NCBI GenBank assembly: GCA_044225175.1
Contig: JBGAJA010000004.1
Coordinates: forward strand, 81,631 to 145,630
Direction of reading: 5' to 3'
DNA: 64,000 nt
From: Candidatus Omnitrophota bacterium
GTDB lineage: Bacteria > Omnitrophota > Gorgyraeia > Zapsychrales > Fredricksoniimonadaceae
A program made the position numbers and the translations under genes. Positions 1 to 54,394 of this stretch are shown piece after piece. The notes beneath the pieces are model-generated. The model was not told the DNA's origin, made no database searches, and saw only the letters and a program-made list of their open reading frames with translations. Each line of letters opens with the position of its first letter. Position 1 is the stretch's first letter.

Positions 1-1584
1 GCTATATGGCTCTAGATCATGAGGTGCTGCCAGCATGGCATGGTTAGCGGTAAATAAATTTTCTGATACTCGTGTTAGTCTTTTTACGCTTTTTGTGCCA
101 CTGATCATGGCTGGGTTTGTAGGACTTGATTTAATCTTATTAACTTTTCTCCATTTTTCTTCAATTTGCATGTAAAACTCTTCTGCCCTGTGTCTTAAAA
201 TATTAGTTCCATTAGCATCTGCCGCGGTTTCCCCAGACGCCATACTTTGTTTTAATTGATCAATTAAGACTTCCACTTCTTCTGAGGGTTTATAAGGAAT
301 AATACTGATGCTTATACGCAATAAACTTGCGAATGCCTTAGAAAGTCCTGTCAACATAGCTGGATTTGATGTTATTTGTAATACTTCTGTTGATCTTAAA
401 GAAGTATTATTGATTAATGCTAAATCAGCTCCTCCTGAAAAATATTTTCTAGAAATAGGCTGTTGGCTAATAGGATCCTGATCTTGCTTAATGTAGTTGT
501 AGACACCTTTTTTAAAGGCGTGGAGGTATTGATTGTAGATCAATTCAATATCCGTAGGGGCAGGTCCCTGTGCCTGCCCTTTTTTTGGATCAACATCATT
601 TTGTTGAGGGCGGCCACGGGCAGCCGCCCCTACGTATTGGATTCCTGCCGTTTTATTTTTATCCGCATACACCTGCGCCAAAATCGAATCTTTAATCTTC
701 TTCTTGTACCAAGTGGCTAGAATCAAAGAACTATAAACCTGCCTAAGCTGCACAAAATTGGCCCCTTCATTGATCTCCTTAGTCAATTCAGGAATAACAA
801 CCTCCCGTATGATCTGACTGTGCAAAAAGGTGTCAGACACCTTTTTATCAACCCGCCCCTTCAAAAAGGTGTCTGACACCTTTTTGGAGGCTACGTAGTC
901 TTCTTCTAACATCACTTTCAGCCTGGATTCCACTACATAGGCTGTTCCGGCCTTTGCATTCTCATAGACTACGGCTTTCTCGGGGACTATCCATACCTTG
1001 TTGAAAGTATTGACTGGGATATTGGTTGTTCCATACCTTTTGGCGGATTCTTCGTAGATTCTCTTCCAAAACTTACGGCCAATCTCTTCTTCTGGATACA
1101 TAAGGCTGGCTGTGATCTGTTTGAGCATGTAGTCCTGGGCCAAAAGGTCGCGGCCCATCTCGGTTTGGCCAAAGCTTTCGGGGACTATGCGGTTTTTTTC
1201 ATAGGGACTTAGATTCACCCATAGGTCGGCTTCTGGGGTGGTTAAAGAGGCCAAAAAGTACTTGATTAGACGGTTGGACTCTTCCTTCAATTTATGTGCA
1301 TCAGCGACGGAACGTGACCCTTGATCTAGGATAAAATCGAACATAAAAGGATTATCTGGATGGACCTTGATTCCTTTGAGCAAAGGAGGGTTCACAGGGG
1401 CGCTTAGATGCACCCTACCCCCAGATTTGGGCAAACGCAGCTGCTGAGCATAGGCTGGCAATGGGCCAATGGTATTAATTAAAAAAATGATGACCATCAG
1501 CCAAAGGCTGATCCGCCTTTGGCGGAAAAAGGCAAAAACAATCCCCAGGCACAAAGCCCTTCTTAACTTTACAATCTTAAACAT
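1..1584 (-). CDS. Giant modular secreted protein, paralog P1, N-terminal part; the gene continues beyond the window start
   Basis: Hand translation of the minus strand from ATG 1582-1584 (in-frame TAA four codons upstream) stays open to position 1. It has a signal-peptide-like N-terminus and clear homology to the N-terminal ~330 aa of the 3589-aa protein (LWVNLSPYEK, NTFNKVWI, KKVSDTF x2, RKYFSGG). It is missing from the ORF track only because no stop lies inside the window. Confidence 0.7.
   Translation of the reverse strand, partial: MFKIVKLRRALCLGIVFAFFRQRRISLWLMVIIFLINTIGPLPAYAQQLRLPKSGGRVHLSAPVNPPLLKGIKVHPDNPFMFDFILDQGSRSVADAHKLKEESNRLIKYFLASLTTPEADLWVNLSPYEKNRIVPESFGQTEMGRDLLAQDYMLKQITASLMYPEEEIGRKFWKRIYEESAKRYGTTNIPVNTFNKVWIVPEKAVVYENAKAGTAYVVESRLKVMLEEDYVASKKVSDTFLKGRVDKKVSDTFLHSQIIREVVIPELTKEINEGANFVQLRQVYSSLILATWYKKKIKDSILAQVYADKNKTAGIQYVGAAARGRPQQNDVDPKKGQAQGPAPTDIELIYNQYLHAFKKGVYNYIKQDQDPISQQPISRKYFSGGADLALINNTSLRSTEVLQITSNPAMLTGLSKAFASLLRISISIIPYKPSEEVEVLIDQLKQSMASGETAADANGTNILRHRAEEFYMQIEEKWRKVNKIKSSPTNPAMISGTKSVKRLTRVSENLFTANHAMLAAPHDLEPYS
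552..634. repeat. GC-rich palindromic element with CCGTAGGGG...CCCCTACG termini, inserted in-frame in P1
   Basis: Outer inverted repeat ccgtagggg/cccctacg with two inner hairpins (gggcagg-N8-cctgccc; gggcggc-N8-gccgccc). It is translated as a Gly/Ala/Pro/Arg-rich insert (YVGAAARGRPQQNDVDPKKGQAQGPAPTD) that the other paralogs lack at this position. Confidence 0.6.
824..885. repeat. Pair of 23-bp perfect palindromes AAAAAGGTGTC(A/T)GACACCTTTTT separated by 16 bp, in-frame in P1
   Basis: Copies at 824-846 (centre A) and 863-885 (centre T). Each encodes KKVSDTF on the minus strand. The same pair occurs in P3 and P4. Confidence 0.7.
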
Positions 1585-1630
1585 ATCGAAAGTTTACTAT
1601 ATATATAATAAAATCGCCAATTTCCGCATT

Positions 1631-27196: not shown

Positions 27197-28312
27197 TCAA
27201 TTTTGCGATACAAAATCCGGCAGCGGTATGGGGGTTATGGTGAGGATATATGGAACTAGGCCGGTTAAATGGGTTAATTCTGCAGGAAGTTGTACATCTC
27301 CTACCTGAGGCATTTGACCCTGTTCTTTGATCTCTGTTTTCAATAAATCTGGGTTTAGATCAATACCTCCCAAGTCTTTATTCTTGGAAACCTGCGCCTG
27401 ATCTGGCGTTGAGCTACCCACATTCAGCTCTAGGGCCGTAATGATTCTTTCTAATCTCTCTTTTCGCAATTGCAATTGTTTCAATGCCTTGTTATCTAGT
27501 TTGGCTTGCGACCCTGCCTCAGACATGTCTTGTTCTATGCGCTCGATGTTTTCTATTACCTCTAACCTCTGCCCTTCGTAAGCAATCAACTTCTCTAATC
27601 TTTCTTTCTCAACTTGGAGTTGATGGGGTTGCTTTTGTAATGCTTCATTTTCAATTGCGTTAACTTTTTGCACTGGCTTAAATATTGTCCAAAGCTTGCT
27701 CTTCTGTCCGCTCAAATATACTGTACGAATTCGACCATCGGCTTGTTCATATGCAGAAGAAATCCAATCATCATGTTCAAGCCTTTCAATAATGGTGTAG
27801 TTTCCCTCCGCTTGTGCTTCCCAAATATAGGCAATAGTATCGCTTACCGTTATTATTCGACCATCCGAAAGTTCTTTTGCTGATCCTACCCTTTCAGGAT
27901 GTTCTAATGGTTTGGTAGCCTCCACCCATTGGACACCTACCTTTTTCCAAATTCTGGCCGTTTGATCTCTGCCTGCTGTCAAAATTCTTCCATCTGATAA
28001 TGCTACTGCATATTTGATTAATTTGGTCGATTCTTGTTTGATGTCCGTAGGGGCATGATTTATCATGCCCTTTAATTGGGTTTGATGAATCAAACCCCTA
28101 CGGTTAGGGTTTTCATCTCCCGCATCCATCACAAAATCAAACTCAAAAGGCCGATTCGCATGCACCTTAAGGCCCTTCAACATAGGCACATTGCTGGCCA
28201 TCGCAACCTCGTAGGTTCGTAAGGGCAGGTTCCCCTGGGCCTGGGCTGGGATTGGGCCTAGACCGGTTATCAAAAAGCTCACCAATGTTAAAATTGAGAA
28301 TGGTTTTTTCAT
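27197..28312 (-). CDS. Modular secreted protein paralog P2 (371 aa): shared N-domain, short DGRI/WD-like repeats, coiled coil, shared C-terminal tail
   Basis: The first ~86 aa are identical to the 36300-36590 ORF. The C-terminal DLGGIDLNPD...PLPDFV tail is shared with P3 and P4. Its start overlaps the P3 stop (ATGA). Confidence 0.7.
   Translation of the reverse strand: MKKPFSILTLVSFLITGLGPIPAQAQGNLPLRTYEVAMASNVPMLKGLKVHANRPFEFDFVMDAGDENPNRRGLIHQTQLKGMINHAPTDIKQESTKLIKYAVALSDGRILTAGRDQTARIWKKVGVQWVEATKPLEHPERVGSAKELSDGRIITVSDTIAYIWEAQAEGNYTIIERLEHDDWISSAYEQADGRIRTVYLSGQKSKLWTIFKPVQKVNAIENEALQKQPHQLQVEKERLEKLIAYEGQRLEVIENIERIEQDMSEAGSQAKLDNKALKQLQLRKERLERIITALELNVGSSTPDQAQVSKNKDLGGIDLNPDLLKTEIKEQGQMPQVGDVQLPAELTHLTGLVPYILTITPIPLPDFVSQN
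28045..28103. repeat. In-frame 59-bp palindromic element CCGTAGGGG-(two hairpins)-CCCCTACGG in the P2 N-domain
   Basis: Inner palindromes catgatttatcatg and gggtttgatgaatcaaaccc. Encodes ...NRRGLIHQTQLKGMINH.... The homologous position in P1 is ~16 aa shorter and lacks it. Confidence 0.6.
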
Positions 28313-31300
28313 GATTTATGGTTTTGCACGAAATCAGGTAACGGCATTGGAGTAATCTTGATAATAAAAGGAACCAGACCAGTTAAATTGCTTAATCCTT
28401 CAGGAAGTTGTGCATCCCCTACCTGAGGCATTTGGCCCTCGGTTTTGATGTCTGTTTTTAATAAATCTGGATTAAGGTCGATACCTCCTAAGTCTCTTGA
28501 GGATTGAGCGGAATCTGTAGGATGTTTTTCAAGTTGTGCTTCAAGGGCCTTAATAAGTTTCTCTAATCTATTTTTTCGTAACTGTAATTGATCAATCTTA
28601 AATTGCTGTGGCAAATCTACTAGATCTTGTCCTAAAACCCCAACATCATCACCCAAAATGAGATAACGCGAATCTTTGCCCTGGTGATAGGCCAATATAT
28701 GTTTGATCATCTGACCGCTATAGGAATCTGTTAAATTCTTAATGAGATCATCACCTAAAGGCTTTTGTCCTTTCTTAAAAGCAAACGCACGCGTGCTGCC
28801 CTTATCATCATGTAAGCTCAAATAAAATGGCGGATCTGACTCCGCAAAATTCAAAACAGAATAAACAGGATAAACTGAATTGATTTTCTGTATTTCATTG
28901 GTCAAGGAATCATTATTTAGCTCAGATCCATCTGCTTTATAACTAAACACGCTACCCTTTCCAATACTCATGAATACTTGTTCTCCATTGTTTTCTCTGA
29001 TGATCACATCATAAATATGATTAGACTTATGTTTGTTGGAGATAGCCAGAGCTAATGGGACTTCATAAATTCTTCTACCGCCCTCCGTATAAACCGCCAC
29101 AAAACCCCTCTCTCCCGCAAATAAAAACCTTCTTTGTCCCTCAATTTGATACTCTAAGACTGTATAAATATCAAATGGCGTAGGAAGTTCTCTTATGGCT
29201 TTAGCCATAGGGTGGTCCACTTCTCTGCCGTCTTTCCCAAACACATAAACTTGTCTCATTTGACCTACAGCCATAAACGATTCTTCCCCTCTCGAACTAA
29301 AGAATGGAAGCACTTTGAATATGGTTAAATCTCCGAATTTACTTTTGATGGCTTGGACTAAAGGATCATTAGGGACTCTTGTTCCATCTTCCTCAAACGT
29401 AGACATCTTCTGACCGGGCGAATATCCCTTAGTTACAATGCGGACACGACCGTCTCTCTTATAGGAAAAAGAATAATGAATTCCATTTATTCCATGGAAA
29501 AATTTGATGGCTTTAGCTAACTTGGAAGCATTGTCTGTTGGAGGTAAAGCATGGATGGGTCTATAGCTTGGCTTGTGGTCAGCGACTAATCCGGCCACAT
29601 GCCATGATGTGACATGACCTCTTTCATCCACAACCTCTAAATGAGTTCCATCCGCAGATATAGATACAGAAATAAAATTATTCGCAGAATGCTTTGATCC
29701 TATCTCTGTTCTTTCTTCCCATACACCCTGATCATTCTTAGTCCATATCCAAATCTTACCCTGACTGCCCACTATGACAAAATAACTACCATCTGGTGAA
29801 ACAGCCACATCATTTCGTCCCCCTGGGGTTAAGCGAACATTCTGCTGAGTTCCTTTGCTATCCCAAATACTAACCTCACGATTACCCATAGCCACAAAAC
29901 TTCCATCAGGAAAAACATCCAATGCTTTATAGCCACTGTAGTAATAAGATTGATTCTTGCCCCATTCCCCATCCTTATTCTTCCAAACATTGATCGAATG
30001 CCTCTCAAGAGTTAAAAAAGATTGACCATCCGCAGAAATCACAAGATCTAATGTGCAATCCTCATGGCCTATCAAGGCTTCTTTGCTTGCTATAACAGAG
30101 GGCTCCCATTGATTACGTTCGTTCTTTTTCCATATTTGAATAAACTCATCTGAGGTAGGAGGAACACCATTATTGCCTGATTCAGGCCTGGTATGTAAAG
30201 TCAAAAAATAGTCCCCTTGAGGAGATATGACAATCTTTTGTAAAAGCCCCACCTCACCCCTTGGATCAAAAGAACGCCTGTTTCCCCATGCCCAACCTCT
30301 TTGACCATCGGCATTATAAATTGTAATGCTTCCGTTCGGATCACTTACATCTTGATTGACCATGAAGCTCCCATCTCGAGCAATGGCCTTTATTCTGGAA
30401 TCTACCTGGGATTTTTCTTGAGGCGAGATCTCATGAAGTGGCAATAACCTTAGAATTTGATTCTTTGCTTCCATTGATTTTAAAGCATCCTCGCGCTCTT
30501 GAGAAATACGGGCCAACTCATCTTCATGGGCAATAATTCTTTCAAGCCATTTTTTCCTTTTTTCTAATACAACAAGGCTGCTTTGCCCTACTCGAGGTCC
30601 TCCCACGTCCCAAATTCTCTCTCGTCCCTTGCCATCTACCGTTACAAAGTAAGTCCCATCAGGAGATATGGCAACGGCTGCTGCGACATCTTCAACCCCT
30701 GGATCTGCAACAGTCCCTAAAAATCTTCCTTCCCCCCATTGACCAGCAGCATTTTTTGTTGATATAAACACCTCTCCTTGAGATCCTACGATGACACAAT
30801 AATTGCCATCTGGAGAAATAGCCACATCCTGGAGGTCCATAAAACGATCTTTGACAATCTGGCCAGAGGATACCCATTCATCATTTGACCTTTTGTTTTC
30901 CCAGACGTGGATAAGACCAGACATCTTATCTGTGACCACAAAACTCTTTCCATCAGGAGCTATAGCGACAGATAGTGAATTGTTTAAAGCTGCAGATATC
31001 TGCTGCTTCCATTGAGGTTCACCTTTAGCATTATAAACTTGCACAGCACTGTTGTTATGGACGACCACAAAAAAACTGCTGTCAGGAGCAATGGCTACAT
31101 CCGTTATTTTATATGAATAAGAACCTACAGAAGTCTCTTGCTTCCACTCATTATTTTTCTGAGATTTTCTCCAAATTTGTACTTTCCCAGATTCAGTTGT
31201 TACAACAAAATAACTTCCATCTGGAGCGATTGCTACGTCAGTCAATTCCCAAGGAGAGTCGTTTAATAGTCTGCGACCTGGCACCCATTTATTCTGACTA

Positions 31301-34300
31301 TTTTTATTCCAAAGCGTAAGAATGCCTATTGCAGTTCCATCTCCAACATCCTTATAACTCGTGGTAAGAAAATACGTACCATCTGGAGATAAAGCAACGG
31401 CTGTTATGTCTTCACGATCACTTGTGTTAATGGGCTCTTCCTGTGTGGACCATGTCCCATCAGCTTCTTTACTGGAAATTCTGACCTTCCCAGCCTGCGT
31501 TACAGAGACATAAAACTTTCCATCAGAGGCCACAGCAACAGCCGCTGTAAAACCATCTCCCTTAGAGTTTAATTCGTGAAATTTGATCTGTTCCGGGACT
31601 AATAATTTCTTAGCTATTTCCCAAATCCTAGCGGCTCCATCATCACTTGATAACACAATATAACGGCCGTCGGGACTATAGGCGGCGGTAGACACCCCAT
31701 ATGGAAATCCTGTTAAAGGCTTTCCTATTTGCTGTCTTGTTTGCACATCCCAAAACCTAACAGATCCATCATCACCTGCTGTCACAATATAACGACTATC
31801 TGGACTAAATACTACGCTCACCACTTCCTTATCAAGTCCTTTTAAAGGCTCACCTATTGGCTGTCTTGTTTGGGCATCCCAAATTCTGACCGGGCCATCA
31901 AAACTTACTGTCACAATATAACGTCCATCAGGACTATAGACTGCTGAGCTGAACACTGAATCATCATGTTCTATTAAAGGCTCACCTATTTGCTGTCTTG
32001 TTTGCGCATCCCAAATCCTAACTGTGCCATCACGACTTGCTGTCATAATATAACGGCCGTCGGGACTATAGGTCGCGGTATAGACCCCATTTGAATGTCC
32101 TTTTAAAGGCTTTCCTATTTGCTGACCTGTTTGTGCATCCCAAATCCGAACAATGCTATCATGACTTGCTGTCACGATATAACGACCGTTTGGACTATAG
32201 GCCGCCGAAGTCAGATAATCCTCATGTCCTGTTAAAGTCTCTATTGGCTGTCTTGTTTGCGCATCCCAAATTGTAGCGGTCCTATCATCACTCGCAGTCA
32301 AAATATAACGACCATCTGGACTAAATACTGCGCTCATCACTAACCCAGAATATACTCTGAAAGGCTCACCTATTTGCTGGCCTGTTTGTGCATCCCAAAT
32401 CCGAACTGTCTTATGATCAGATACTGTCACGATATAACGACCATCGCGACTATAGGCTGCTGATCTCACAAAATCAGTATGTCCTGTTAAAGTCTTGATC
32501 ATCTTTCTTTGATCATCAGGCAAGAGCTCTAATAATCCTCTTTTGCCTTGATTGGCCATGATTTCGTTGATCTGAGCAATGACTTTCTCAAGCTCTTTCT
32601 TCCACTTACTTTCAGGCACAAATGCTGCTTTAACTTTAAGCTCATCTTGCCTTGCCTTTAATCTTTCAATCTCACTAGTAAAGAAATCAATCCCTGCCTG
32701 GAATGGATTATTCTCAACCCCTCCTAATTCTTCTAAATGAGACCTTTGTTCCTCAAGAAGTTTAATCACTCGTCCTATGTCTTCGACAGTATCCTTATGC
32801 CCCTGAACAATTCCTTCAATCGTACTCTTCACCTCTGCCAGTGGGTCGGCACTCATGGCTTGATCTGAGCTACCGGTCTTTGCAGTGTTTGGCTTAAATA
32901 TCTTTGTTGTTATGATCTTTCCTTTTAAATCGTCTGTTAAAAGTCGTCCATCAAGGAGACTTTCCTCTTTAGCAATCAATAGTTCTAATTCTTTTTTTCG
33001 AGCTTCTAATGTGCTTAATTCCTGTTGAAGTACATCTTGTCCATCCTTAGGAACATCGGTATCGGGTGTCTGTGGTTCCAATGGTTTAAAAATCTTCCGA
33101 ATTACGGTTGTAGGATGATCTTTAGTTGTAATGAACACACTCGTTCCATCAGGACTAAATCCAATCACAGCATTAACGGCGTCCCCAAGGGAAAAACTTT
33201 TAATTTCTTCTCCTGTTTCAATGTTCCAAATCTTGGCTGTCCCATCCTTGCTCGCCGTAGCGAGCATTCTTCCATCAGGACTAAAATTAACTGAGTCCAC
33301 AAAATAAGAGTGGCCGTTCCACACCCTTATTGTTTTTCTCTTTATAATGTCCCAAACTATGAGCGTACAGTCAGACCCCGTTGCTATTTGGTTTCCATCC
33401 GGACTAAACGCCATGGAATAGATATTGTTGGGCTGTTCTAATGTTACTTCCCTTCTTCCAGTGTCCACATCCCATATCCTTACCGCTTCTCCCGTAGACA
33501 TTTTAATGGTCGCAGCCACCTGTGTGCCATCTGGACTAAAAGCGACTTTTGAACTAAGAGATGTTTTATATCCCAATAATCTCTTCAGTTCTACCCCTGT
33601 ATTCACATCCCATATTCTGATTTTATCTAAAGTTGCTATAACAATCTTTGTACCATCAGAACTCAAGCTCATTGCTTTAAAATTTGTTATGTTCTCTAAT
33701 GTCCTGATTTTTGTTCCTTTATCAACATCCCATATAATCACTTGGGAATTATTCATCGTAGCTATCCTTGTTTCATCTAAACTAAAAACAGTTCCCCAAC
33801 TTATATAATCTCTTAGCGTGTGAAGTTCTTTTAGATTTGGAACATCCCATATTTTAATTATTCCACCTTTGCGTACTGTGACTGCTCTACTCCATTTTGG
33901 CCCTAAAACCATTGAGTCCGTAATGTATTTTTCATCTGGTAATAGCTCTATGGGTTTAATCTGGTCTTCTGGCAAAATTTCCATTTGTTCTTGGCTTGTT
34001 TGCTTTTCTTTAGATGAAGATTCTTGTCTTTCAATTGGTTTAAATATGTTCCAAATCTCAGATCCGAAAGCATCCACTATAAATATTTTACCTTCCGACA
34101 GTATTTGGGCTGATTTCAGTCCAACCACCTCAGCGGTAACCTCTACCTCCCATTTACGTCTGGATATTTTCTTCCATATCTTGACGGTACGATCCTCACT
34201 CGCTGTGAATATTCGTCCATCTTCCAACATATGAGCTGCAACAACGGTACCGTTATGCCCTAGACTATAGCGATCTTTTTCTTCTAAAGTAGCTTCCACT

Positions 34301-36093
34301 TCCCAGCTTTTGTCTTTGTTCTGACGCCATATTTTAGTTGTCCTGTCATAGCTGGTAGACAATATTCTTCCATCTGGCAGCATCTGAGCTGAATGGACAA
34401 TGTCTTCATGTCCTTTTAATGTAGATTCAACTGACCACTGGTTGAGAGAATCTTCTTTCCAAATCTTGAGTGTCGCATCTTTACATGTTGTTAATATTCT
34501 TCCATCTTTCAGCATTTGCGCAGAGGTGACCCAGTTTGGATGCTCTAAATTAGCAGCCACATCCCATTGATCCGCTGAAGATTCTTTCCATATTTTTGCT
34601 GAGCTATCATCACTTGCTGTTAACAGTCTTCCATCCGGTAACATTTGGATGGAATTAATACCGTACTCATGTCCCTTAGGATTAGTATTCTTTGATTCCA
34701 AAGTAGAAGTAATCTGCCATTTGTTCTTCGATTTCTGCATCCATATTTTGATCTTTCCATCATGACTTCCCATCACAATTCGTCCATCGGGTAACATTTG
34801 GGCCAAACTAATTGAGGTTTCTTCCTTCTTTGGCCATGATAATGTTACGAGAACTTCTAATTGATCCTTTGATGTCCTACGCCATATCTTGACTGTGTTA
34901 TCAATACTTGCCGTTAATATTCGTCCATCTTCTAATATTTGATTTGAAAAAATAAGGTCTAAATGCCCTTTAGGATTTTCATCTTTATCAAAAGAGAACT
35001 TCATCTCTTCATGGGTCCACTGATCTATGGGCAGTATTTCTCTGGGGGCATTAGAATTCTCAATTTTTTGACTAGATTTAATTCCACGTCTCAGTTGCTT
35101 AATTCGAGCGATCACTTGCCCAAGTTCTTCTTTATGCTTGCTCTTAGGAGTAACCGCTGCTTTAAGCTCATCTTGCCTTACCCTTAATCTTTCAATCTCA
35201 CTAGTAAACAAATCAATCCCTGCCTGGAATGGATTATTCTCACCCCCCCCTAATTCTTCTAAATGAGACCTTTGTTCCTCAAGAAGCTTAATCACTCGTC
35301 CTATGTCTTCTACTGTATCCTTATGGCCCTGAACAATTCCCTCAATTGTACTCTTTACATCTGCCAGCGGGTCGTTGGCTGTATTCATGGCTGCATCTTT
35401 AAACTGGCTCTTGATGGCAAATAAATGTGACTTTTCAAAGGATTGCACTGCCCGATCTTGAACATCTTTCGGAACACTTGACCAGTCTTTGTACACCATA
35501 GCCTGGTCTAATGCTGCCTGCGGATTGAATCCTCCAGAGAAGTATTTACGGGCCACCATCTGGCGTTTACCCTGAGCGTCAGTCGAAGGGTCTTCCTTGA
35601 TATAGTTAAACACCCCCTGCTTGTAGGACTTCAAATAATCCTGGAATATCTTCTCTTCTTCCTTAGGATCTTTCTTCTGTAACCCTTGGGTCTTGCCTTT
35701 GTTCACATAGGCTTTAGATAGAACACTCTTTTTTAGCTCTTTCTTGTACCAAGCTGCCAAGACCATGGAATTGACAATCTGGCGTAAGGGGGCAAAGTCT
35801 TTGGATTGGTTGACTGCTTTCTCTAACTCAGGAATCACGATCTCACGGACAATTTGACTACATAAAAAGGTGTCAGACACCTTTTTATCCATCTGCCCGC
35901 TCAAAAGGTGTCTGACACCTTTTTGTGGGCTAAAATAGTCTTCTTCCATCATTACCTTCAATTTCACATCCAACACCCATACTGTGTTGTCTTTCATCAA
36001 AAGTGATGCCTGATCCGGCAATATCCATACCTTGTTAAACGTATTAATCGGCACATTGGTATTCCCATACTTCTCTTGTACCTTCCCATACAC
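28309..36093 (-). CDS. Giant WD40 / beta-propeller repeat protein paralog P3 (2594-aa ORF); the N-terminal domain is separated by frameshifts
   Basis: At least three runs of WD40-type repeats (xDGRILTAS..IKIW; GH..V.S..YSPDGRYIVT...RIWD) and a second repeat type (SPDGSYFVV). Internal duplication of a ~90-aa helical module. Shared C-terminal tail. The ORF begins inside the conserved N-domain. Confidence 0.7.
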   Translation of the reverse strand: MYGKVQEKYGNTNVPINTFNKVWILPDQASLLMKDNTVWVLDVKLKVMMEEDYFSPQKGVRHLLSGQMDKKVSDTFLCSQIVREIVIPELEKAVNQSKDFAPLRQIVNSMVLAAWYKKELKKSVLSKAYVNKGKTQGLQKKDPKEEEKIFQDYLKSYKQGVFNYIKEDPSTDAQGKRQMVARKYFSGGFNPQAALDQAMVYKDWSSVPKDVQDRAVQSFEKSHLFAIKSQFKDAAMNTANDPLADVKSTIEGIVQGHKDTVEDIGRVIKLLEEQRSHLEELGGGENNPFQAGIDLFTSEIERLRVRQDELKAAVTPKSKHKEELGQVIARIKQLRRGIKSSQKIENSNAPREILPIDQWTHEEMKFSFDKDENPKGHLDLIFSNQILEDGRILTASIDNTVKIWRRTSKDQLEVLVTLSWPKKEETSISLAQMLPDGRIVMGSHDGKIKIWMQKSKNKWQITSTLESKNTNPKGHEYGINSIQMLPDGRLLTASDDSSAKIWKESSADQWDVAANLEHPNWVTSAQMLKDGRILTTCKDATLKIWKEDSLNQWSVESTLKGHEDIVHSAQMLPDGRILSTSYDRTTKIWRQNKDKSWEVEATLEEKDRYSLGHNGTVVAAHMLEDGRIFTASEDRTVKIWKKISRRKWEVEVTAEVVGLKSAQILSEGKIFIVDAFGSEIWNIFKPIERQESSSKEKQTSQEQMEILPEDQIKPIELLPDEKYITDSMVLGPKWSRAVTVRKGGIIKIWDVPNLKELHTLRDYISWGTVFSLDETRIATMNNSQVIIWDVDKGTKIRTLENITNFKAMSLSSDGTKIVIATLDKIRIWDVNTGVELKRLLGYKTSLSSKVAFSPDGTQVAATIKMSTGEAVRIWDVDTGRREVTLEQPNNIYSMAFSPDGNQIATGSDCTLIVWDIIKRKTIRVWNGHSYFVDSVNFSPDGRMLATASKDGTAKIWNIETGEEIKSFSLGDAVNAVIGFSPDGTSVFITTKDHPTTVIRKIFKPLEPQTPDTDVPKDGQDVLQQELSTLEARKKELELLIAKEESLLDGRLLTDDLKGKIITTKIFKPNTAKTGSSDQAMSADPLAEVKSTIEGIVQGHKDTVEDIGRVIKLLEEQRSHLEELGGVENNPFQAGIDFFTSEIERLKARQDELKVKAAFVPESKWKKELEKVIAQINEIMANQGKRGLLELLPDDQRKMIKTLTGHTDFVRSAAYSRDGRYIVTVSDHKTVRIWDAQTGQQIGEPFRVYSGLVMSAVFSPDGRYILTASDDRTATIWDAQTRQPIETLTGHEDYLTSAAYSPNGRYIVTASHDSIVRIWDAQTGQQIGKPLKGHSNGVYTATYSPDGRYIMTASRDGTVRIWDAQTRQQIGEPLIEHDDSVFSSAVYSPDGRYIVTVSFDGPVRIWDAQTRQPIGEPLKGLDKEVVSVVFSPDSRYIVTAGDDGSVRFWDVQTRQQIGKPLTGFPYGVSTAAYSPDGRYIVLSSDDGAARIWEIAKKLLVPEQIKFHELNSKGDGFTAAVAVASDGKFYVSVTQAGKVRISSKEADGTWSTQEEPINTSDREDITAVALSPDGTYFLTTSYKDVGDGTAIGILTLWNKNSQNKWVPGRRLLNDSPWELTDVAIAPDGSYFVVTTESGKVQIWRKSQKNNEWKQETSVGSYSYKITDVAIAPDSSFFVVVHNNSAVQVYNAKGEPQWKQQISAALNNSLSVAIAPDGKSFVVTDKMSGLIHVWENKRSNDEWVSSGQIVKDRFMDLQDVAISPDGNYCVIVGSQGEVFISTKNAAGQWGEGRFLGTVADPGVEDVAAAVAISPDGTYFVTVDGKGRERIWDVGGPRVGQSSLVVLEKRKKWLERIIAHEDELARISQEREDALKSMEAKNQILRLLPLHEISPQEKSQVDSRIKAIARDGSFMVNQDVSDPNGSITIYNADGQRGWAWGNRRSFDPRGEVGLLQKIVISPQGDYFLTLHTRPESGNNGVPPTSDEFIQIWKKNERNQWEPSVIASKEALIGHEDCTLDLVISADGQSFLTLERHSINVWKNKDGEWGKNQSYYYSGYKALDVFPDGSFVAMGNREVSIWDSKGTQQNVRLTPGGRNDVAVSPDGSYFVIVGSQGKIWIWTKNDQGVWEERTEIGSKHSANNFISVSISADGTHLEVVDERGHVTSWHVAGLVADHKPSYRPIHALPPTDNASKLAKAIKFFHGINGIHYSFSYKRDGRVRIVTKGYSPGQKMSTFEEDGTRVPNDPLVQAIKSKFGDLTIFKVLPFFSSRGEESFMAVGQMRQVYVFGKDGREVDHPMAKAIRELPTPFDIYTVLEYQIEGQRRFLFAGERGFVAVYTEGGRRIYEVPLALAISNKHKSNHIYDVIIRENNGEQVFMSIGKGSVFSYKADGSELNNDSLTNEIQKINSVYPVYSVLNFAESDPPFYLSLHDDKGSTRAFAFKKGQKPLGDDLIKNLTDSYSGQMIKHILAYHQGKDSRYLILGDDVGVLGQDLVDLPQQFKIDQLQLRKNRLEKLIKALEAQLEKHPTDSAQSSRDLGGIDLNPDLLKTDIKTEGQMPQVGDAQLPEGLSNLTGLVPFIIKITPMPLPDFVQNHKS
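35864..35924. repeat. In-frame pair of AAAAAGGTGTC(A/T)GACACCTTTTT palindromes in P3
   Basis: Copies at 35864-35886 and 35903-35924. Encodes ...KGVRHLLSGQMDKKVSDTFL... Confidence 0.7.
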
Positions 36094-36300
36094 CCTCTTC
36101 CAGAATTCTTTCCTCTATCTTTTCTTCCGGATACAGCAAGGATGCCATGATCTGTTTTAAGATATAGTCCTGATCTAACAGCTTCATCCCCATCACTGTT
36201 TCCCAAAATCCTCTGAGATCATTCGGTCTTTTTCATAGGGACTTAGGTTCACCCATAGGTGGTCATTGGGTATGGCTAAGGTTGAGAGGAAGTATTTGAT
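36093..36300 (-). pseudogene. Frameshifted junction between the P3 N-domain ORF and the main ORF
   Basis: Aligned with the P4 segment 46840-47180, this stretch shows +1 (cc-t-c vs ccc), -1 (ttt vs tttt), -1 (ggg vs gggg, inside the CCGTAGGGG terminus) and -3 differences. All lie in or next to homopolymers. Confidence 0.5.
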
Positions 36301-36590
36301 TAGTTTGGTCGATTCTTGTTTGATGTCCGTAGGGTATGATTTATCATGCCCTTTAATTGGGTTTGATGAATCAAACCCCTACGGTTAGGGTTTTCATCCG
36401 CATCCATCACAAAATCAAACTCAAAAGGCCGATTCGCATGCACCTTAAGGCCCTTCAACATAGGCACATTGCTGGCCATCGCAACCTCGTAGGTTCGTAA
36501 GGGCAGGTTCCCCTGGGCCTGGGCTGGGATTGGGCCTAGACCGGTTATCAAAAAGCTCACCAATGTTAAAATTGAGAATGGTTTTTTCAT
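36300..36590 (-). CDS. N-terminal domain fragment of P3 (96-aa ORF with signal peptide)
   Basis: Identical at the nucleotide level to the 5' end of P2 (27197-28312). Its start overlaps the P4 stop (ATGA). Confidence 0.55.
   Translation of the reverse strand: MKKPFSILTLVSFLITGLGPIPAQAQGNLPLRTYEVAMASNVPMLKGLKVHANRPFEFDFVMDADENPNRRGLIHQTQLKGMINHTLRTSNKNRPN
36327..36384. repeat. In-frame palindromic element copy in P3 (left terminus CCGTAGGG, one G short)
   Basis: Same element as at 28045-28103 and 47086-47144. Confidence 0.6.
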
Positions 36591-39500
36591 GATTTATGGT
36601 TTTGCACGAAATCAGGAAGCGGCATGGGGGTGATATCTTTAATAATTGGAACCAAGCCTATGATTTCTTTGAATTCTAAAGGAATATTTGAATTTCCCAG
36701 ATCAGGTGTTTGACCCTGATTTTTAACATCTACTTTTAATACATCTGGATTAAGATCAATACCCCCTAAATCTGATTCTTTCAACATAGCTCGATCTGAA
36801 GGAGCGCTGGACTTGAACAGTTGGTATATTGCAGCCAATCCTACCGTTGTTCCAATGAATGACTTTCCATCTGGATGAAATGCTATGAAAACAAAATTAT
36901 AATCTGTCCCTGCATGAAATGTCATGATCTGGTTACCTGTGATCACGTCATATACCTTCATCCGACCATCCTCAGTGCTCGTAAGAATCTTGCTTCCATC
37001 GGTACTAAAGATGAGGGTTATATTAAATCGAGCACTCTCATCACTCTGAACGTTAATATTCTTGAGTACTTTTCCCGTACTAACATTCCAAACTTTGACT
37101 ATATGATCATCACTTGCAATGGCTATGCGTCTTCCATCTGGGCTAAAGGCGACCGCTAATACTTCTCTTTTGTTTCCTACATATGTCATTATTTTCACAC
37201 CTGTTGTGACATCCAACAGATCTATATTGCCATCATCGCTTGGAACAGCTACTTTGCTCGCATCGGGGCTAAAAGCAAAAGCTTCTAACGGAGCCCTCTC
37301 GACTGCAGATATTGATGTGCTAATTTTTTGTCTTGTTTTAGAATCCCATACGATAACGTTATCCCAACTTGCGGCAAGAGCCAGTCTTCCATCTGGACTA
37401 AAGGCAACACGCATTACTGGTTTTGGACTGTTTAATTTCTTAATTACCTTGCCCGTTTTTACACTCCAGATCCTGGCAGTATTATCCTGGCTTCCACTAA
37501 TGATCCTTTGTCCATCTGGGCTAAAAGCAACAGAAAATACCTGATAATTTTTCTCATGCCCTTCGAACACCCTCAATAATTTTCCTGTTCTTACACTCCA
37601 TATCCTCACTTTTCCATCCTCATGGGCAGTAGCTACTTGTTTTCCATTTGGACTAAACGCAGCAGACCGCACAAAACCTCTATAGTTTCCCAATTTCTTA
37701 GGGGCACCGATCTGGTCTTTAGGCAGAATTTCAAGCTGTTCTTTGGCATCTACCTTAACAGGTTTAAATTTATCATCTATCTTACGTCCAGAAACAACAG
37801 GCACTGATGCTGTTGCAAGGAGTTCTTTCCTGGTTTTTAATTTTCCAATCTCCTCATTAAGCAATGCAATCGCTTCACTAAACACATGCACATCACCCCC
37901 TGCAAGGGTTTCCAAATGACCTTTTTGTACCTCAAGAAGATCAATGATTCCCTGAACATCCTTAATTGTGTCTTGAGGCCTCTTAAGAATACCTTCAATG
38001 ATATCTTTAACATCCCTCGCATTATCTCTTAGTGCATTCATCGCAGAGTCTTTTAAATAGAAAGTTCTTACACCATACTCCTGAAGTCCATATAACATTT
38101 GTTCAAATGACTGTAGGCGGGTCATTTGATTGCCCGTTGTTTTATTAATCACCATCTCATCTAATCTGAGTTTTAAAATCCAGTCCGCCCCCTCTTCTAG
38201 AAACTTTGAAGGCCAACCTTTTTTCGCAATGATTGCTGTTCTTATGATGGCTCGCAAGTTGTCAATTCTTGCACGATTTTCTTGTGTGTGAGCTGGCGGC
38301 AAGGTTATATCGCAGCGTTTATCTAAAATGACACCTAATACTTGATAGGCATCTCTGGCCATATTGAATCGTTTTATTTTTTCTCCAATAGTCACAAGTG
38401 TTGGAAGAGTTAAGTTACTTCCCGCTGGCGCGTTATTTTGAATAGTTACATTTTGTTGAACCGTCATTTCATCAAATAATATTTCTAATCTTTGCTGCAA
38501 AGTTTCAATTTGACGATCGATGTTCCCCATGGTGTTTGTTTGCAAGAATCTAAGCACCCTGTCAATGTCTTCAAATCCTGTTTGTGGCTCACGAATGACC
38601 GGAAGATTCTGAACTAATACTCCCTCTCCTTTGAGAAAGTCCTCCAAAGCATTTTTAGTGGGGTCTTTTGAAAAGAGGCCTTGATCAATAAACACTTGCA
38701 CAATGTTGGAACGCCAGCGGATCAAATTTGCAGCATCTCCTTCTAATGTTAAATTCTCCAAAAGAAGGTCCAGAAGAATTTTCTGAGATATTATTCCCTT
38801 ACTTTGCCGATAATTGAACTGACGGACAATAGCTTTAACAAAAGATTTTAAATTACGAATACTAATTTCCTTATTACGCGGAAAGAATGTTGGATCTTTG
38901 ATTTGACGTCTAGAAATTTCCTGAGCAATGCCAATAATTCCCGAATATTCAATTTCTCCATCAGGATATTTCTTAGGCTTGCCACCAGCATCAAGCTTAG
39001 GCTCACCAATCAAGTGTGGATTAACAGCAAATTGCAGGGAATCCACTATAGATTTCCCGACAGCTGCTTCGTTGAGGTAATAAACCATTTCTTGAGGCGG
39101 CATATCCTCAAAATCAATGACCATATGACGTTCAATAAAGTCATCCGGAAATGATTTGATCCTCTCTCCGCTGCCAGGACGATTAATCGTATGAATAATA
39201 CCAGAACCAGGCTGCCCAAAAGTGACCTGAGACTCTTTGGTTGGATCATGAATCATGTTTCTTTCAGCATATTCATTGAGTAATGAAAGTACGGAAGGGC
39301 GTCCTTGATTGCTTTCATCCATATTTAAGATTTGCCCATGACCATGGCCATCGTCCATAATCGAAGGTAATATCCCAGGAAAAAAACGTGTACGGAAAGA
39401 CTTAAGCGCTCTTGAAAAAGTCAAATGATACCTACGGGTTTCTTCATTGATTTCCGCCTTTAGAATTCCTGGGGCATTCAACAATTTTTGGATGGCGAAT

Positions 39501-42500
39501 GTCATAGTACTTTTTCCTGTTCCAGGTTTTCCTACAAATATCGCGTGTTTACCCAAACCATGCCCTTGAAGATACACATACAATTTAAGAGAGTTCTTAG
39601 CGCTTTCAATCCACTCCTTGATTTCAGAGGGTAATCTACCTGATCGGATTTCTGCCTTTGGATGAAGAGGAACTCTGATGGGATCCCAGAATTCTGCTGA
39701 TGCTCCACTTGGAGTAATGATCAAATAATCACCATCCACTTTAAAAGAGGATTCTTTGAACTCCAAAGGCGGTTTATTTGGACTATCTATACGCCATGCC
39801 TTAAAAGCATGTAATGCACCTTGATAAGTATTATTACGGTCTTCTTCCGCTTTAAAATTATAATAATATTGAATCACACTTAAAGGCCGATACTCCCAGT
39901 CTTTCTCGAAATTGATAAAATGAGTGATGATATTTTTAATAACACGAGGAGATGGCGGCCGTTTCAGGTTCTGAGCAATTCCAGAGGCTGGGCCATTCTT
40001 AAAAAGATCCATAATTTGAGGGTCCTGCGCCATTTTCTGGACTAAATAGTTAGAGTCCAATAAATTCCAAGATTCCCGATTAGCAAAAATAACAGCCTGT
40101 TGTTGAGCACTATAACCTGCAAATGATAGTCTAAGTTCGGCTGCAATACGGACTAATTCAGTAATATCATTTTGCAATTTTTGCCTAAAATTTTCCCAAT
40201 CATCTTTATGAATTCCCTTCTGACGGGCCAAATTTAAAGCATATTCTAGCTGCCAGGCCACTTCATCTTCAGGCCAGTCCCAATAAAATTCCACATCTTT
40301 AAATCTGTCTTGCATGGGCGCATTTGCTTCAAAGCTAGTACCAGTAATACCCGAGCGGATACGATTGACGCTTGCTAATAGCCTGGCGCGCGGGTGATTA
40401 GGCAAAGTCTCAAAACGCGTAATTCCGTCTCGAACAATGGGCCATTTATGAGTTTTGCCTGTGATATGAGATTTGAGGGAATTTAATACGCTTTGACGAA
40501 TTTTATGGGCTTCACGAATGACAAACCACCCTCCTTTATGCATGACCTCATTGAGACCTGAGGGTATGACCCCTGAAGTGCCTGCTTCTTCTGCTCCAAC
40601 GGATTGAGGTCCACTTTCAAGATCTTCCACATCGAGATCTCCATCTCCCGACATCACATATACCTCTTCATTCAATAAATGAGCTGTAGCCATTAAAATT
40701 TCATCTTTTCCAAGACCTGTCTCACCGATTAAACGAACTGCAATTCCATCCCATGAATCACTAGCTGTTTCATTATTAAAACGCAATCGACTTTCGACCT
40801 CCCACTGAGAAGATTTCTTAAAGATAATGACTTCTCCGTCATTATGATTGTACGCAAATACTTTTTCACTGTTGATTTTATAGATATTCCATTGACCTTC
40901 TTGCAATTCAGAAATAGGCAATTCCTTAGCTATATCATCTTTAGGAATATCTATTGAAACGGAATCAAAAACTTTAATAGGTGTGTATCCTCCATGATTA
41001 TCATCTTTTTGCAAAAGCTCAATCTGACCATCTTCAATTTGTCTTAGTCCATAACGGTGGTCTGCTGAATAAGACATATCGATATGGTTGGAGTTATACA
41101 GGGCATCTAAAATTTTAATCATTTTATCCTCAGTAGAGGCCGTCATTGGAATCGTAGTCGTGGGGACATTTGAACCTCCAAGCCCTCTTTGCCAATAAAG
41201 AGCTTCTTCATTAGGACGTTTAAAGACTAAAAATTCATACCCATTTCTAGTTTGAGTAAAGAAATGTTTATAATCGCCCAAAGGTTTCATTTCTCCAAAC
41301 TGAACCTGTGGATCAGAGGTCATGGCCGCATCTACACTGTCCAGCCAGCTGACTCCAGGAGCAGGTGCTCTGATGGAATTAGCAAAAGAGTCCATGACTG
41401 CATTAGGGAGATCTCCAAACGAGGCCGGAGCAATCACACGATGAGGATATTCTTTATTCTGAAGCTGCGAGGCACGCACTTGATTCATATTTCCTAAAGG
41501 AATGATATACACATGAGCACCCTCATCCTCTGCTTGCTGAAGAGTAGTATGGACTTTCCCTTTTTGATCCTCATCCACATCTTCATCCGTCAAAGCAAAA
41601 AGGATGCGAATACTTTTCTCTCCACTGGAAACGGAATCCTGAGAAGATAATAAACGTTCAATATACTTAAAAAGATTGGATGCATAATGAGTACCTCCAC
41701 CTGCATTTAATTTCTTCCACACATCATAAAGTACACGTTCTTTACGAAAATTCTGCTTGCGAGATGTCTCATGGGAAATCATGGTTTCCCCTGGTGCATC
41801 CACAAAAAGACCAACTTCAAATTCAATAGGCGCATATCCTCTGGACTGACGAACTTCATTATGGTTTAAGATAGCGCTCATCATGACAAAATAAATAATC
41901 CTGGCCATTTGAATGGGAAAAATACCCCGTTCATTGTCAACTCCCATACTTCCGCTTCGATCCATCACAAATGACACTTTAACCGGAAGAGGTTCATTAG
42001 GTTTCCATTTGCCAAAAGCAGGTCCCCCTGAAATGGCTGCCACCACATTTGCTAATATCGCACCTTGCTCCAAATCTCTTTCAAAAGTAATATCAACACT
42101 AGGGAGGGTTAAGACTTCCAGAGCTTTAGTAAAACGTTGAATCAGCTTGCCAACTGTGATTGTTTTACCCTTATTTGTAATTTCAATTTCGAGCCATTTG
42201 TTATATTCTTTCCATTCATCCATGGTCAAACCTGTTCGGTTCTTGATCATCTCTTCTTCCGCACGAGCTGCTGCAAGAGGGTCGAAAGGTTTGACAGTAA
42301 TAGGTCTAACAGGAGGTGTGGTTGGTCTTTGACTATTCAAAAAATCATCCACATCTGGAATATTCACCTTATCTGGCATGGATAATTCTTGGCTGTCCTT
42401 TGTCGCAGGCTTGTGTTGTTGGGGTTGATCTTCACTAGCCGGTTGAGAATTTGATGATGAACTTTGGGATGGTTGATTTTGCGATTTCTTTGATGATTGT

Positions 42501-45500
42501 TCCAAAGATTGCTTCAAAGAATCAATCTTACTTTGCAGATCTGATAATTTATTGGAAGCGTCTTTTGTTTTAGATGATGTTTGATCAACTTGCTCTCGAA
42601 TTTCTCCCACTGTGCGTTCAATTTGGCGTACTTGTCCTTGGACTTGAGGGCCATCAGGCTTGGGTTCGCTTAATTTATCTGATAGTTGATCTGTGCCTTT
42701 TTTGAGGGCATTTGCTTTTTCTTGAAGATCATGGATTTGATTTAAAAGGTCTTGGATCTTGCCATCAAATTCTTTTGACGAATCAGAGGCTTCTTTGCCC
42801 TCTTCCGGAGAAGGAAGATTTTGACGCATGCCTTCGGTAGCATCTTTTTGATTAGACGAAGCACTAGAAGCTTCGCGGGCCTGATTCAAAAGATTCTGGG
42901 CTTTCGATTGGATATCTTTGGCTTTGCCTTTAAGATCATCAGCTGTTTTGCGTTGATCATCAAGCGGCTTACTCTCAATTCCAGAAGCATTGACATCCCC
43001 TACCTTGCCCTTCATCCCCTCTAATCCCTGGGTCATCTCTTCAATTTTCTTATTGAGATCACTCAGTTGACCGGCTAAATCTTTCATGGTTTTCTCAACA
43101 TCTTTAATATCATGAGAGCCGCCTTGCTTCTGCCCTTGACCTGGAATGTAGCGACCTTGAGATCCTCGGGAGCCTTGCGGCTTACCTGGCCCTTGGGATT
43201 GTCCTTGTTGACCTGAAGCTCCTGGCTGCCCCTGCTGCCCTGCCTGACCTTGTTTCCCCGATTGGCCCTGTTGACCCTGCTGTCCTTGTTGGCCTTGCTG
43301 GCCCTGTTGACCTTGCTCTCCTTCGCCCTCTTGATCTTGCGGTGTTGGCTGCCCCTGAGAACCGCTTTGGCCGAATTCTTCTTGGGCCTCATCCATTTGC
43401 TCTTGCACAGCTTTTCGAATAGCTTCTTTGGTCTTTTCATCCAAAGAATTCCAGAAATCTTCCAACTGTTGCTTTTGTTCTTCTGTCATTTGATCAAATT
43501 CACGACGCAATGCTTCCTTCTTTTCTTCTTTCATTTTACGTTGATAAGCGCGCCATCGTTCTTCAGTTTTCTTGGCTTTCTCAAAGAGTTCCAAATAAAC
43601 CGGCCAAATCTTTTCTCCAATGGCTTTAACAATTTGCGCATCTTGAATGTATTTAGGATGAAAAAGAAGTTTAAGCCAGCCATAATCTTTGGCATCATCC
43701 AAACTTCCCATTGTTCTAACAACAGCTGTTTCCAAGGCAGGATTGTTGACCCGGGGGTCTTTCATGCTTTGTTCTTGAGGATCATAATGAAACCGTCGAT
43801 ACATCAAAGAATCCAAATATTGCAGATGAAGGGGCAAAGAACTTAACAAGGCCTTGGCCACCAATTGATGGGCTTTTGTATCCCCTAAATCATATCGATC
43901 TCTTAACACCCTTCCCACCCAGAGGGAAGCCCCCTGCAAACTTTGATCTGCTTGACCTGATAAAATACTTTTAGAAGTAACGTCAATTCCAAGGCGTACA
44001 GATTTTGGAAACAATAGTGTGTCCCACAACGTCTGAGTGATGGAGTTTCCTTTAGACGAATCAGGAAGATTCTTCATAAGACCACGTAAACCAAATTTGA
44101 CTTGAGAGATAGCAATAAATGCTAATCCAAGTCCTCTCTCACGGGCCGCTTCGATCTGTCCTTCTAAATCATTTCTGGATGTACCATCATAGAGACGCGG
44201 ATAAATATCTGTGGGAACATAATGAAGCTCTCCCACATAATCACTTTTAGATTGATAACGCCACAGCCCTCTTGGTGTACCTTTAAGTTCAACTTGCTGA
44301 CCTGCCGATGTGCCGGCAAATTTGAGAATGTCATCTGTAATTTTAGCTATTCCATGACCTACTTTAGGATCTTCTGACAAGGCATAACGTTCATAAAGAA
44401 CTTGGAAAAAATCTTTGAGAAGCCGAAGCGGTTTGATGTCTGGGTCTTTGGCTTTCATCTCTGAAAAGACCCCGGCAATTAAAATACCCACCGCTCTTTG
44501 GGCTGCATAACTATTTAAGAGAAGGTCTGCTGACTGCCCTTGTTCTTCATAAACTGCCCGGGCTTCACTTAAAAGATATTCCACAGAGAAGTATCCAGCT
44601 TGACGATCAGAAGTCCCTGGATTGATCATAAATCCAGTTTCTCCCTGCTCGGCAATTTGGCGGCCTCGTTTAAATAAATCCACAGCTGCGGGCTCCTGTG
44701 TCATAGCTGCAAATTCGATTAATTTCTTTTCAAATAAACCTTCATCACCTTTGACAAAACGCTCTATTTCCAGAACACTAACTGCATGGGTAATGTCTTC
44801 CCATTTAAAGGGAATATGAATTTCACCTTGGTTAGCAAAATAATGAAAAAGTTCATGTTTTAAAGCCAATCGAATGAACCATTCAGTGGCTTTATCTTTA
44901 ACATAAACTTTCTTGGATAAAGGATCAAAAAGCCCTCCAGACATGCCAATGACACTGTTCATATTTACAAGAAGATCAGCCGCTGACTCACGCCATTGAT
45001 CAAATGGACCTATTTTAAAAAGAGGCTCTAAGAGGTCTCCAAAATAATAGGATTTCACATCTTCCCTTAATCGTTTTTTCCAAACTTCTTGAGCAGTGCC
45101 ATCAAAAAGCTCTTCTACTGTTTCATCAATGATTTGATCTACAATCCCTCGCGTTTCTTTAGATAGACCCTTGTTGCCAACTACAAGCATTTCTTCATAG
45201 AGCGCCATAAATTTACTTTCAAATTCATGAGGATTTCTAATCTCACCTAGAAAAAATAATCTATCAATCTTTCCTTGGGCATAGACTTGATGAGCCGCCT
45301 TCAATGCAGATTCAAATCCTTGTTCCGTGGTTTTTTGAGACAAAGGCCCAACTACATTAAGCATACTCTGATAAGCCACATGAAAAGCCGGTTCATCGCT
45401 ATTATCCAAAGCTATAACCATGTCTTGTTTCAATGTGAAATAATCTTTCATGACCTCCTGAAGGGAGGCTCGTTCGTAGTCTTTGGAGGGTGGACTAGAC

Positions 45501-47356: not shown

Positions 47357-47525
47357 ATATCCTTTACTCTTTAATGACTACCTAAAGTAAAGCATATATA
47401 TAAGGGATATTCAAGGGCTGGCAAGGCATTCAAAGAAAACGTTTTCTCTGTGTATAAAAGAGGTTTTAATCAAATTATTTTTATTAAAGGAAAAGATAAA
47501 AAAACTATTCTGATTTTGCAGGTTT

Positions 47526-54386: not shown

Positions 54387-54394
54387 AATATTTT

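Follow-up and report, generated by a model that had tools for sequence, protein, structure and literature searches.

A conserved C-terminal tail paired with an N-terminal domain in large proteins of Candidatus Omnitrophota

Analysis of a 64,000-nucleotide stretch of a Candidatus Omnitrophota genome (GenBank assembly GCA_044225175.1, contig JBGAJA010000004.1, positions 81,631 to 145,630 of the forward strand; hereafter the window, whose own numbering is used throughout) revealed that the proteins of three adjacent genes, A, B, and C, end in a common tail, which is an uncurated C-terminal tag of 56–60 residues conserved across the phylum Omnitrophota. This tail is no free-standing signal but one half of a two-ended frame, because it is strictly coupled to a large N-terminal domain (N-domain) located at the other end of the same proteins. 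An earlier note on this DNA had proposed a functional C-terminal tag, and this general idea is correct; we tentatively propose that the tail is a docking peptide acting together with the N-domain. Omnitrophota are uncultured, mostly ultra-small bacteria that are thought to be predators or epibionts, and the function and topology of their many huge unannotated proteins is an open problem. The paired end-modules allow members of a large paralogous family of such proteins to be recognised by a simple rule at the sequence level, and the frame offers a concrete hypothesis on how they are sorted or assembled.

The C-terminal tail in three genes of the window

All three genes are located on the minus strand, and their tails, 59–61 residues long, have the form DLGGIDLNPD...GLVP.I..ITP.PLPDFV followed by 3–5 residues and the stop codon. 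Measured from the D of DLGG through the stop codon, the copies are found at 27197..27376 in gene A (DLGGIDLNPDLLKTEIKEQGQMPQVGDVQLPAELTHLTGLVPYILTITPIPLPDFVSQN and stop codon), 28309..28494 in gene B (DLGGIDLNPD...PLPDFVQNHKS and stop), and 36587..36772 in gene C (DLGGIDLNPDVLKVDVK...PLPDFVQNHKS and stop), all within about 4 nt of the positions first assigned to them, and a six-frame motif scan found no further copy in the 64 kb window. The consensus given in the earlier note was also essentially right, apart from its 'P.E' element, which copy B lacks (PEG). In a protein alignment of the last ~78 residues, 34 columns are invariant in the three genes, and all except 2 of them fall within the tail. 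Genes A and C can be aligned only over their first 105 residues (81% identity) and their last 69 residues (55% identity), so that the tail forms an island of conservation, well above the adjacent cargo as had been suggested; genes A and B also have WD-like repeats in common. The proposed IFKP/coiled-coil linker before each tail was recovered in gene A, where IFKP is located ~100 residues upstream of the tail and is followed by a coiled coil. Gene B shares this upstream coiled coil, but its IFKP motifs are more than 1400 residues away, while in gene C the motif 'QLFKS' ends a WD40 propeller and no coiled coil precedes the tail. The linker is, consequently, no general feature of the tail module.

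In DNA, the tails show only 68–79% identity across the stretch from DLGG to PDFV (56 ungapped codons). The synonymous divergence (dS) was 1.03 for A and B, 0.86 for A and C, and 0.87 for B and C, with ratios of nonsynonymous to synonymous divergence (dN/dS) of 0.11, 0.38, and 0.34, respectively; the synonymous sites are close to saturation, and inspection of the DNA shows these differences directly. The tail is under purifying selection. Gene conversion does occur at this locus, since the 5′ ends of the genes are 95–96% identical in DNA for ~1.1 kb from the start of B and C and ~300 nt from the start of A, and the homogenised regions (27998-28360, 35400-36640, and 46150-47400) include the preceding stop/ATGA junction, but it seems to be confined to the N-terminal ends. 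The explanation that the tail has no function and owes its similarity to recent duplication or gene conversion of tandem paralogues, which the earlier note had named as the outcome fatal to its proposal, retains practically no probability: near-saturated dS is combined with low dN/dS, and the same module is kept in 45 other assemblies and in hundreds of metagenomic proteins. Gene conversion was therefore rejected as the sole cause of tail conservation, and the substitution pattern, together with the phylum-wide conservation described below, supports the tail as a conserved functional C-terminal module.

Distribution of the tail in Omnitrophota

No Pfam or NCBIfam family was found for the tail or the N-domain in the window genes, representative carriers, or family members, and a 67-residue tail matched 0 NCBIfam families at E<=0.1. 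A PDB sequence search with profiles of both modules gave no match, and neither did a word-indexed homologue search with the three window tails, the index of which needs shared 5-mers and returns only proteins of about the query length. An exhaustive profile search with the window tails against 1.84 billion representative proteins (E<1e-3) yielded 51 matches, one of which was a spurious repeat protein. The 50 genuine matches, which place the similarity well outside what chance would give, belong to proteins of 72 to 3561 residues, and in 48 of them GGIDLN begins 57–143 residues from the C-terminus (P0045 is without the exact motif). The canonical form of the tail is GGIDLNP.LLDLQIKRDGxGVPLP..QQP...M.I.GF.PVIINITPV.NLP.LLG, and scanning one genome per species for it gave 148 confirmed matches, from which 76 loci in 45 assemblies were kept, with several loci per genome in some cases. 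The assemblies are all metagenome-assembled genomes (MAGs), carrying either the name Candidatus Omnitrophota or the loose label 'uncultured Planctomycetales' or 'bacterium', and the named database homologues are all annotated as 'hypothetical protein [Candidatus Omnitrophica/Omnitrophota]'. No description of the module was found in the literature searched, and the string GGIDLN appears in none of its papers.

Across 100 tails, many columns exceed 85% identity, and GGI, G42, and P45 are invariant. The distance from GGIDL to the stop codon has a median of 87 residues, the canonical tail usually being followed by a variable acidic extension. In many members (e.g., P0173, P0205, and P0254) this extension ends in (A/S)REPE..(S/N).L(N/K) or E(L/I)S.L, an ending that the window tails do not have. 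The window tails keep the GGIDLNP and G[LF].P.I..ITP..LP blocks and lack IKRDGNGVPLP..QQP, LLG, and the extension; they are a diverged subtype of a strongly conserved module. Their closest relatives are P0050 and P0005, and a metagenome scan for the window-type (PLPDFV) subtype revealed 9 distant loci with 33–44% identity and no close relatives.

A short linker motif is associated with the tails. The frequency of D-x-A-M is 0.66 per 1000 residues in the family versus 0.05 in other open reading frames (ORFs), and D-x-A-[MQAVLI] occurs within 30 residues upstream of 43% of tails versus 6.9% of control windows; it also marks other module borders. In the window, the D-x-A-[QM] form is represented by DQAQ (27392..27403, minus strand), located 9 residues before tail A, with the counterparts DSAQ and DRAM ahead of tails B and C, respectively. 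Other members carry an alternative motif, (A/S)SSP[IVLM], at the same position. Both types of linker motif could be processing or modification sites.

Coupling of the tail to an N-terminal domain

Profile hidden Markov models (HMMs) of the tail and the N-domain were searched against all stop-to-stop reading frames of the 76 loci and the window. The tail was found in 103 frames, and in all of them the match ends 1–63 residues from the stop codon (1–2 residues in genes A, B, and C). A total of 68 of the 103 frames also start with the ~358-position N-domain, which accounts for essentially every frame with its 5′ end within the locus; the few exceptions (L010, L032, L045, and L057) are short, and most of them are fragments produced by frameshifts. 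In the other direction, every frame with the N-domain and without the tail is cut by the locus end or parted from the tail by a frameshift. Among the long representative matches with a signal-peptide-like start, the N-domain is found at residue 1 in 12 of 12. Whether every tail carrier also has the N-domain, a check recommended in the earlier note, can thus be answered with a clear yes.

The N-domain is ~360 residues long and has ~50 invariant columns; a length-limited search found ~860 matches to it. It is directly preceded by Sec signal peptides with A-x-A sites, and an N-terminal hydrophobic segment is present in 54 of the 63 complete members. Family members range from 565 to more than 3400 residues; each genome has several of them, and they often form tight tandem arrays of two to four genes with gaps of -4 to ~300 nt. 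In the window, the N-domain HMM covers positions 11-358 in gene C, 166-358 in gene B with fragments 13-169 across frameshifts, and 13-108 in gene A. A check of the diverged window subtype for correlated loss of N-domain invariants showed no clear pattern.

Between the two ends, the cargo is freely exchanged and is unrelated from member to member. The window genes encode propellers of WD40 and other types, together with AAA_5 ATPases, coiled coils, and a vWA-like motif. Among 36 other members, the domains identified were HEAT repeats (5), UDP-glucose pyrophosphorylase (5), and response-regulator receivers (3), along with single cases of PGK, PEPCK, PGM/PMM, glycosyltransferases, and GGDEF. In P0036, inspection by eye suggested that PGK, PGI, TIM, and a phosphomutase are strung between the two ends.

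A full-length AlphaFold model was built for P0140 (622 aa), a called gene in GCA_016201795.1. Its N-domain was modelled as a mixed alpha/beta fold with two long helices and a long beta-hairpin (pLDDT 80-94), and its cargo was disordered. Tail A modelled alone with 117 tail sequences had almost no secondary structure (pLDDT 73, pTM 0.24), the last 27 residues being extended with pLDDT 83-93. In these models, and with about eight prolines in 56 residues, the tail resembles a linear peptide made for recognition, not a folded domain.

Proposed role of the two-ended frame and alternative explanations

We propose, with a probability of roughly 35%, that the tail is a docking peptide acting with the N-domain after Sec export, and that the family's own N-domain is the likeliest partner. 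The frame, which is specific to Omnitrophota, consists of a cleavable Sec signal peptide and the ~360-residue N-domain at one end and the proline-rich 56–60-residue tail at the other, with exchangeable cargo held between them. After export, a conserved partner would bind the tail as a linear peptide in extended conformation, and this partner would most likely be the N-domain of a neighbouring molecule or of the same one. Co-expressed paralogues would thereby be joined head-to-tail or fixed to the cell envelope through both ends, with their cargo displayed, by a logic like that of dockerin and cohesin except that both halves would be present on every subunit. The N-domain is ranked as the likeliest partner because the two modules never occur apart, are co-conserved, and have no other linked partner: clustering of the neighbouring ORFs across the 76 loci revealed no conserved neighbour gene that could encode a dedicated one.

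Several observations weigh against this proposal. Gene A keeps a tail under selection while having only the first ~105 residues of the N-domain. The N-terminal ends of the window genes are homogenised while the tails diverge, leaving no paralogue-specific co-evolution of the two ends. In the P0140 model, the tail was not confidently placed on the N-domain (pLDDT 50-61, two short strands), the tail part of the alignment being three sequences deep. A third component reading both ends would predict the one-to-one coupling just as well. Finally, much of the cargo is nucleotide-dependent and of cytoplasmic type (PGK, PEPCK, UDPGP, GGDEF, AAA+) behind a signal peptide, which makes a purely extracellular scaffold hard to reconcile with it and may instead point to delivery into prey cells. 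The frame sharpens this paradox of ATP-, GTP-, and UTP-dependent enzymes behind Sec signal peptides; a 2026 preprint on giant Omnitrophota proteins notes the same paradox (10.64898/2026.06.07.730766).

Nearly as likely as docking to the N-domain, and like it below even odds, is the reading of the tail as a sorting or secretion tag recognised by a dedicated envelope machine encoded elsewhere in the genome. Following the logic of the type IX secretion system (T9SS) C-terminal domain or of exosortase tags, such a machine would recognise the tail after Sec export, transfer the protein onto the outer membrane or across it, and perhaps remove the tag, and the N-domain would be a separate anchor or a second signal. 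In favour of this reading, the family has a Sec signal at the N-terminus and a conserved tag at the very C-terminal end, with many paralogues per genome and restriction to one phylum; the canonical tail ends in a hydrophobic segment (median KD19 1.58) followed by the variable acidic extension, as a cleavable tag might, and the extended, non-globular model suits a recognition peptide. However, the tail has no match to TIGR04183, PEP-CTERM, LPXTG, or GlyGly-CTERM, none of the 76 loci has a conserved neighbouring gene encoding such a machine, and the tail was never found without the N-domain, which would be unusual for a general export tag. Moreover, its 56 residues at 70–80% identity are far more constrained than known secretion signals.

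Two further roles have a slight chance each. As a membrane-insertion segment, either a tail anchor or a re-entrant hydrophobic hairpin, the tail would use the stretch GF.PVIINITPV.NLP.LLG, which is transmembrane-like in hydrophobicity in about half of the canonical members (KD19 up to 1.99); yet these 19 residues contain three prolines as well as Asn and Thr, form no helix in the models, and are flanked by an acidic extension with no basic cluster, and the window tails are under selection despite being much less hydrophobic (KD19 1.08–1.27). An equally improbable role is that of a processing element (pro-peptide, intramolecular chaperone, or cleavage site), with cargo modules freed from a polyprotein by a C39-type peptidase cutting after the invariant GG at the tail start or by a cut at the D-x-A-M linker. 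The enrichment of D-x-A-[MQAVLI] upstream of the tails agrees with such processing, as do peptidase domains of the C39 and S8 types reported for giant Omnitrophota proteins (10.1101/2023.11.21.568195). On the other hand, the residues before GG are unlike a double-glycine leader, only position -3 being weakly hydrophobic, no peptidase gene is linked to the family at the 76 loci, and conservation of 56 downstream residues would be superfluous for a cleavage site alone.

The earlier suggestion that the tail is a secretion signal, an anchoring domain, or a partner-binding peptide is thus partly supported: the functional module stands, and each of these roles stays a candidate, no known sorting-tag family having matched and no partner having been found. 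It is a genuine possibility that the two-ended frame represents a new system. If the tail turns out to be a sorting or docking tag of a new type, it would extend the short list of C-terminal sorting systems (sortase, exosortase, T9SS, and dockerin) by one class and would point to the machinery or partner that reads it. It is conceivable, if on balance unlikely, that the N-domain and the tail together make up a self-contained export and assembly system of Omnitrophota that has not been described previously. Polypeptides between the two ends would then be exported and either built into a lattice attached to the envelope or passed into prey or host cells; AAA+ ATPases, signalling domains, and entire glycolytic or glycogen enzymes would be among the exported cargo. 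Such a system would explain the cytoplasm-type enzymes behind signal peptides in ultra-small, probably predatory or epibiotic bacteria and would give a handle on their giant proteins.

Comparison with known systems

Every defining feature that could be tested for the T9SS C-terminal domain, dockerin, and exosortase-type tags failed, and an obligatory partner domain at the N-terminus is absent from all of these systems. The T9SS C-terminal domain of Bacteroidota (TIGR04183/Por_Secre_tail) resembles the tail in combining a Sec signal with a C-terminal tag on unrelated cargoes, in many paralogues and in one phylum. It differs in being a folded beta-sandwich of ~70–100 residues, in contrast to the extended peptide modelled for the tail, and its cargo, typically extracellular enzymes and adhesins, needs no N-terminal domain. 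Among the scanned ORFs of the 64 kb window, no T9SS machinery gene (PorU/V, SprA) was found. A weak NCBIfam match to Por_Secre_tail (27.3 bits, with no single stretch passing) in gene B was rejected, since it is internal (residues 2071-2113, ~29755-29883) and falls in a repeat region.

Dockerin (PF00404), which binds cohesin, is likewise found in the C-terminal ~60–70 residues of secreted proteins with interchangeable catalytic cargo and clustered genes. The tail is proline-rich and non-helical, unlike dockerin, and its presumed receptor would be present on every carrier rather than on a separate scaffoldin; no Pfam match to PF00404 or its duplicated Ca-binding F-hand was detected in the window genes, 10 representative carriers, and 36 members. 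The tags read by exosortase, sortase, and rhombosortase (PEP-CTERM, LPXTG, and GlyGly-CTERM) are also conserved, lineage-restricted C-terminal tags of paralogues with signal peptides. In them, a short motif is followed by a transmembrane helix and then by a basic cluster, whereas the tail has 56 conserved residues, neither helix nor basic cluster, and often an acidic extension. The window tails depart from this layout, with KD19 of at most 1.27, endings in PDFVSQN or PDFVQNHKS, and no NCBIfam match.

Type I secretion (T1SS/RTX) signals go with GGxGxD nonapeptide repeats and the lack of an N-terminal signal peptide, whereas the present family has A-x-A signal peptides; neither the window genes nor the 36 members have RTX or hemolysin-type Ca-binding Pfam matches. 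With respect to the N-domain, the closest parallel is the two-partner secretion (TPS) domain of TpsA and CdiA, a conserved domain of ~250–360 residues directly after the signal peptide of very large variable proteins. The N-domain is unlike it in having no Pfam (Haemagg_act) match and a mixed alpha/beta model with no beta-helix, and TpsA proteins have no conserved C-terminal tail. In the same phylum, giant 'Archaeovorin' proteins and long Omnitrophota proteins have been reported (10.1101/2023.11.21.568195; 10.64898/2026.06.07.730766) that carry signal peptides together with metabolic and regulatory domains of cytoplasmic type (HEAT, AAA_5, PGM, receiver, and GGDEF); term searches of the two preprints revealed no description of a shared N-domain or C-terminal tail.

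Organisation of the tail-carrying genes and their surroundings

Not all of the three genes are complete: three 1-nt indels disrupt gene B at its 5′ end, and the N-domain of gene A is truncated. Gene A (27197..28312, minus strand, 371 aa) encodes a signal peptide, the first ~105 N-domain residues, degenerate WD-like repeats, a coiled coil, and the tail. Its 5′ part (27998..28312, minus strand) comprises the signal peptide (...PAQA followed by QG, continuing as QGNLP) and the truncated N-domain, residues 1-105, which ends after ...ESTKLIKY (residue ~100) and is joined directly to the WD-like repeats, the N-domain core being absent; over its first ~300 coding nt and the upstream junction, gene A is 96% identical at the DNA level to genes B and C at their 5′ ends. 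It is a mini-member of the family, with a tail dN/dS of 0.11 versus gene B despite this truncation, and may be a recent deletion or recombination product.

Gene B (28309..36590, minus strand) consists of a 2594-aa ORF (28309-36093) and N-terminal fragments up to 36590, and its order is signal peptide, N-domain (35503-36590), several WD40 and propeller blocks, coiled coil, and tail. Relative to gene C, the N-domain is interrupted by 1-nt indels near 36334, 36201, and 36114, and also at 35935/35906, mostly in homopolymer runs, so that gene B is either a young pseudogene or affected by sequencing or polishing errors in a 95%-identical repeat. Gene C (36587..47356, minus strand, 3589 aa) encodes a signal peptide, the full N-domain, a coiled-coil and Gln/Gly-rich region, two AAA_5 stretches, a WD40 propeller, and the tail; a vWA-like MIDAS motif, judged by eye only, is located between the Gln/Gly-rich region and the AAA_5 stretches. 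The signal peptide and N-domain occupy 46289..47356 (minus strand, residues 1-356), with the signal peptide at ~47279-47356 (...PTYA followed by QG). At about residues 1263-1532 (~42760-43570) the protein is a Gln/Gly-rich, collagen-like low-complexity sequence (GQQGQQGQQ...) spanned by matches to collagen and adhesin models, and after it comes a long coiled coil with weak SMC and collagen-like adhesin matches. The genes overlap as ATGA, the stop codon of B with the ATG of A and that of C with the ATG of the N-terminal fragment of B.

A fourth family member (1..1593, minus strand) has a signal peptide and a more canonical N-domain, which is 58% identical to the family consensus (gene C, 50%); the gene continues beyond the left edge of the window, and its cargo and tail lie outside the view. 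The flanks of the window carry housekeeping genes, namely a riboflavin operon, GlyRS, PPDK, and a sigma factor. Genes for a polyphosphate kinase and a ROK-family kinase are located near the family genes in the window (53430-56416) and were also found at L086 (1-2483), beside P0140 in GCA_016201795.1, where glycogen-metabolism genes and ATPases of type II secretion systems or type IV pili (T2SS/T4P) are present as well. These shared polyphosphate kinase/ROK surroundings may represent residual synteny or a functional neighbourhood.

A palindromic 19-nt element, AAAGGTGTC[AT]GACACCTTT, occurs in 8 exact copies in the window versus 0 expected, at 826-883, 1633-1651, 18503-18521, 35866-35922, and 46625-46682. 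Single copies are intergenic, while pairs are located in frame in a variable loop of the N-domain in three family genes, where they are read as ...KKVSDTFLSGQMDKKVSDTFL...; the element has the appearance of a REP-like repeat that spread into a permissive coding loop. In other family members, this N-domain loop holds odd insertions of unrelated sequence.

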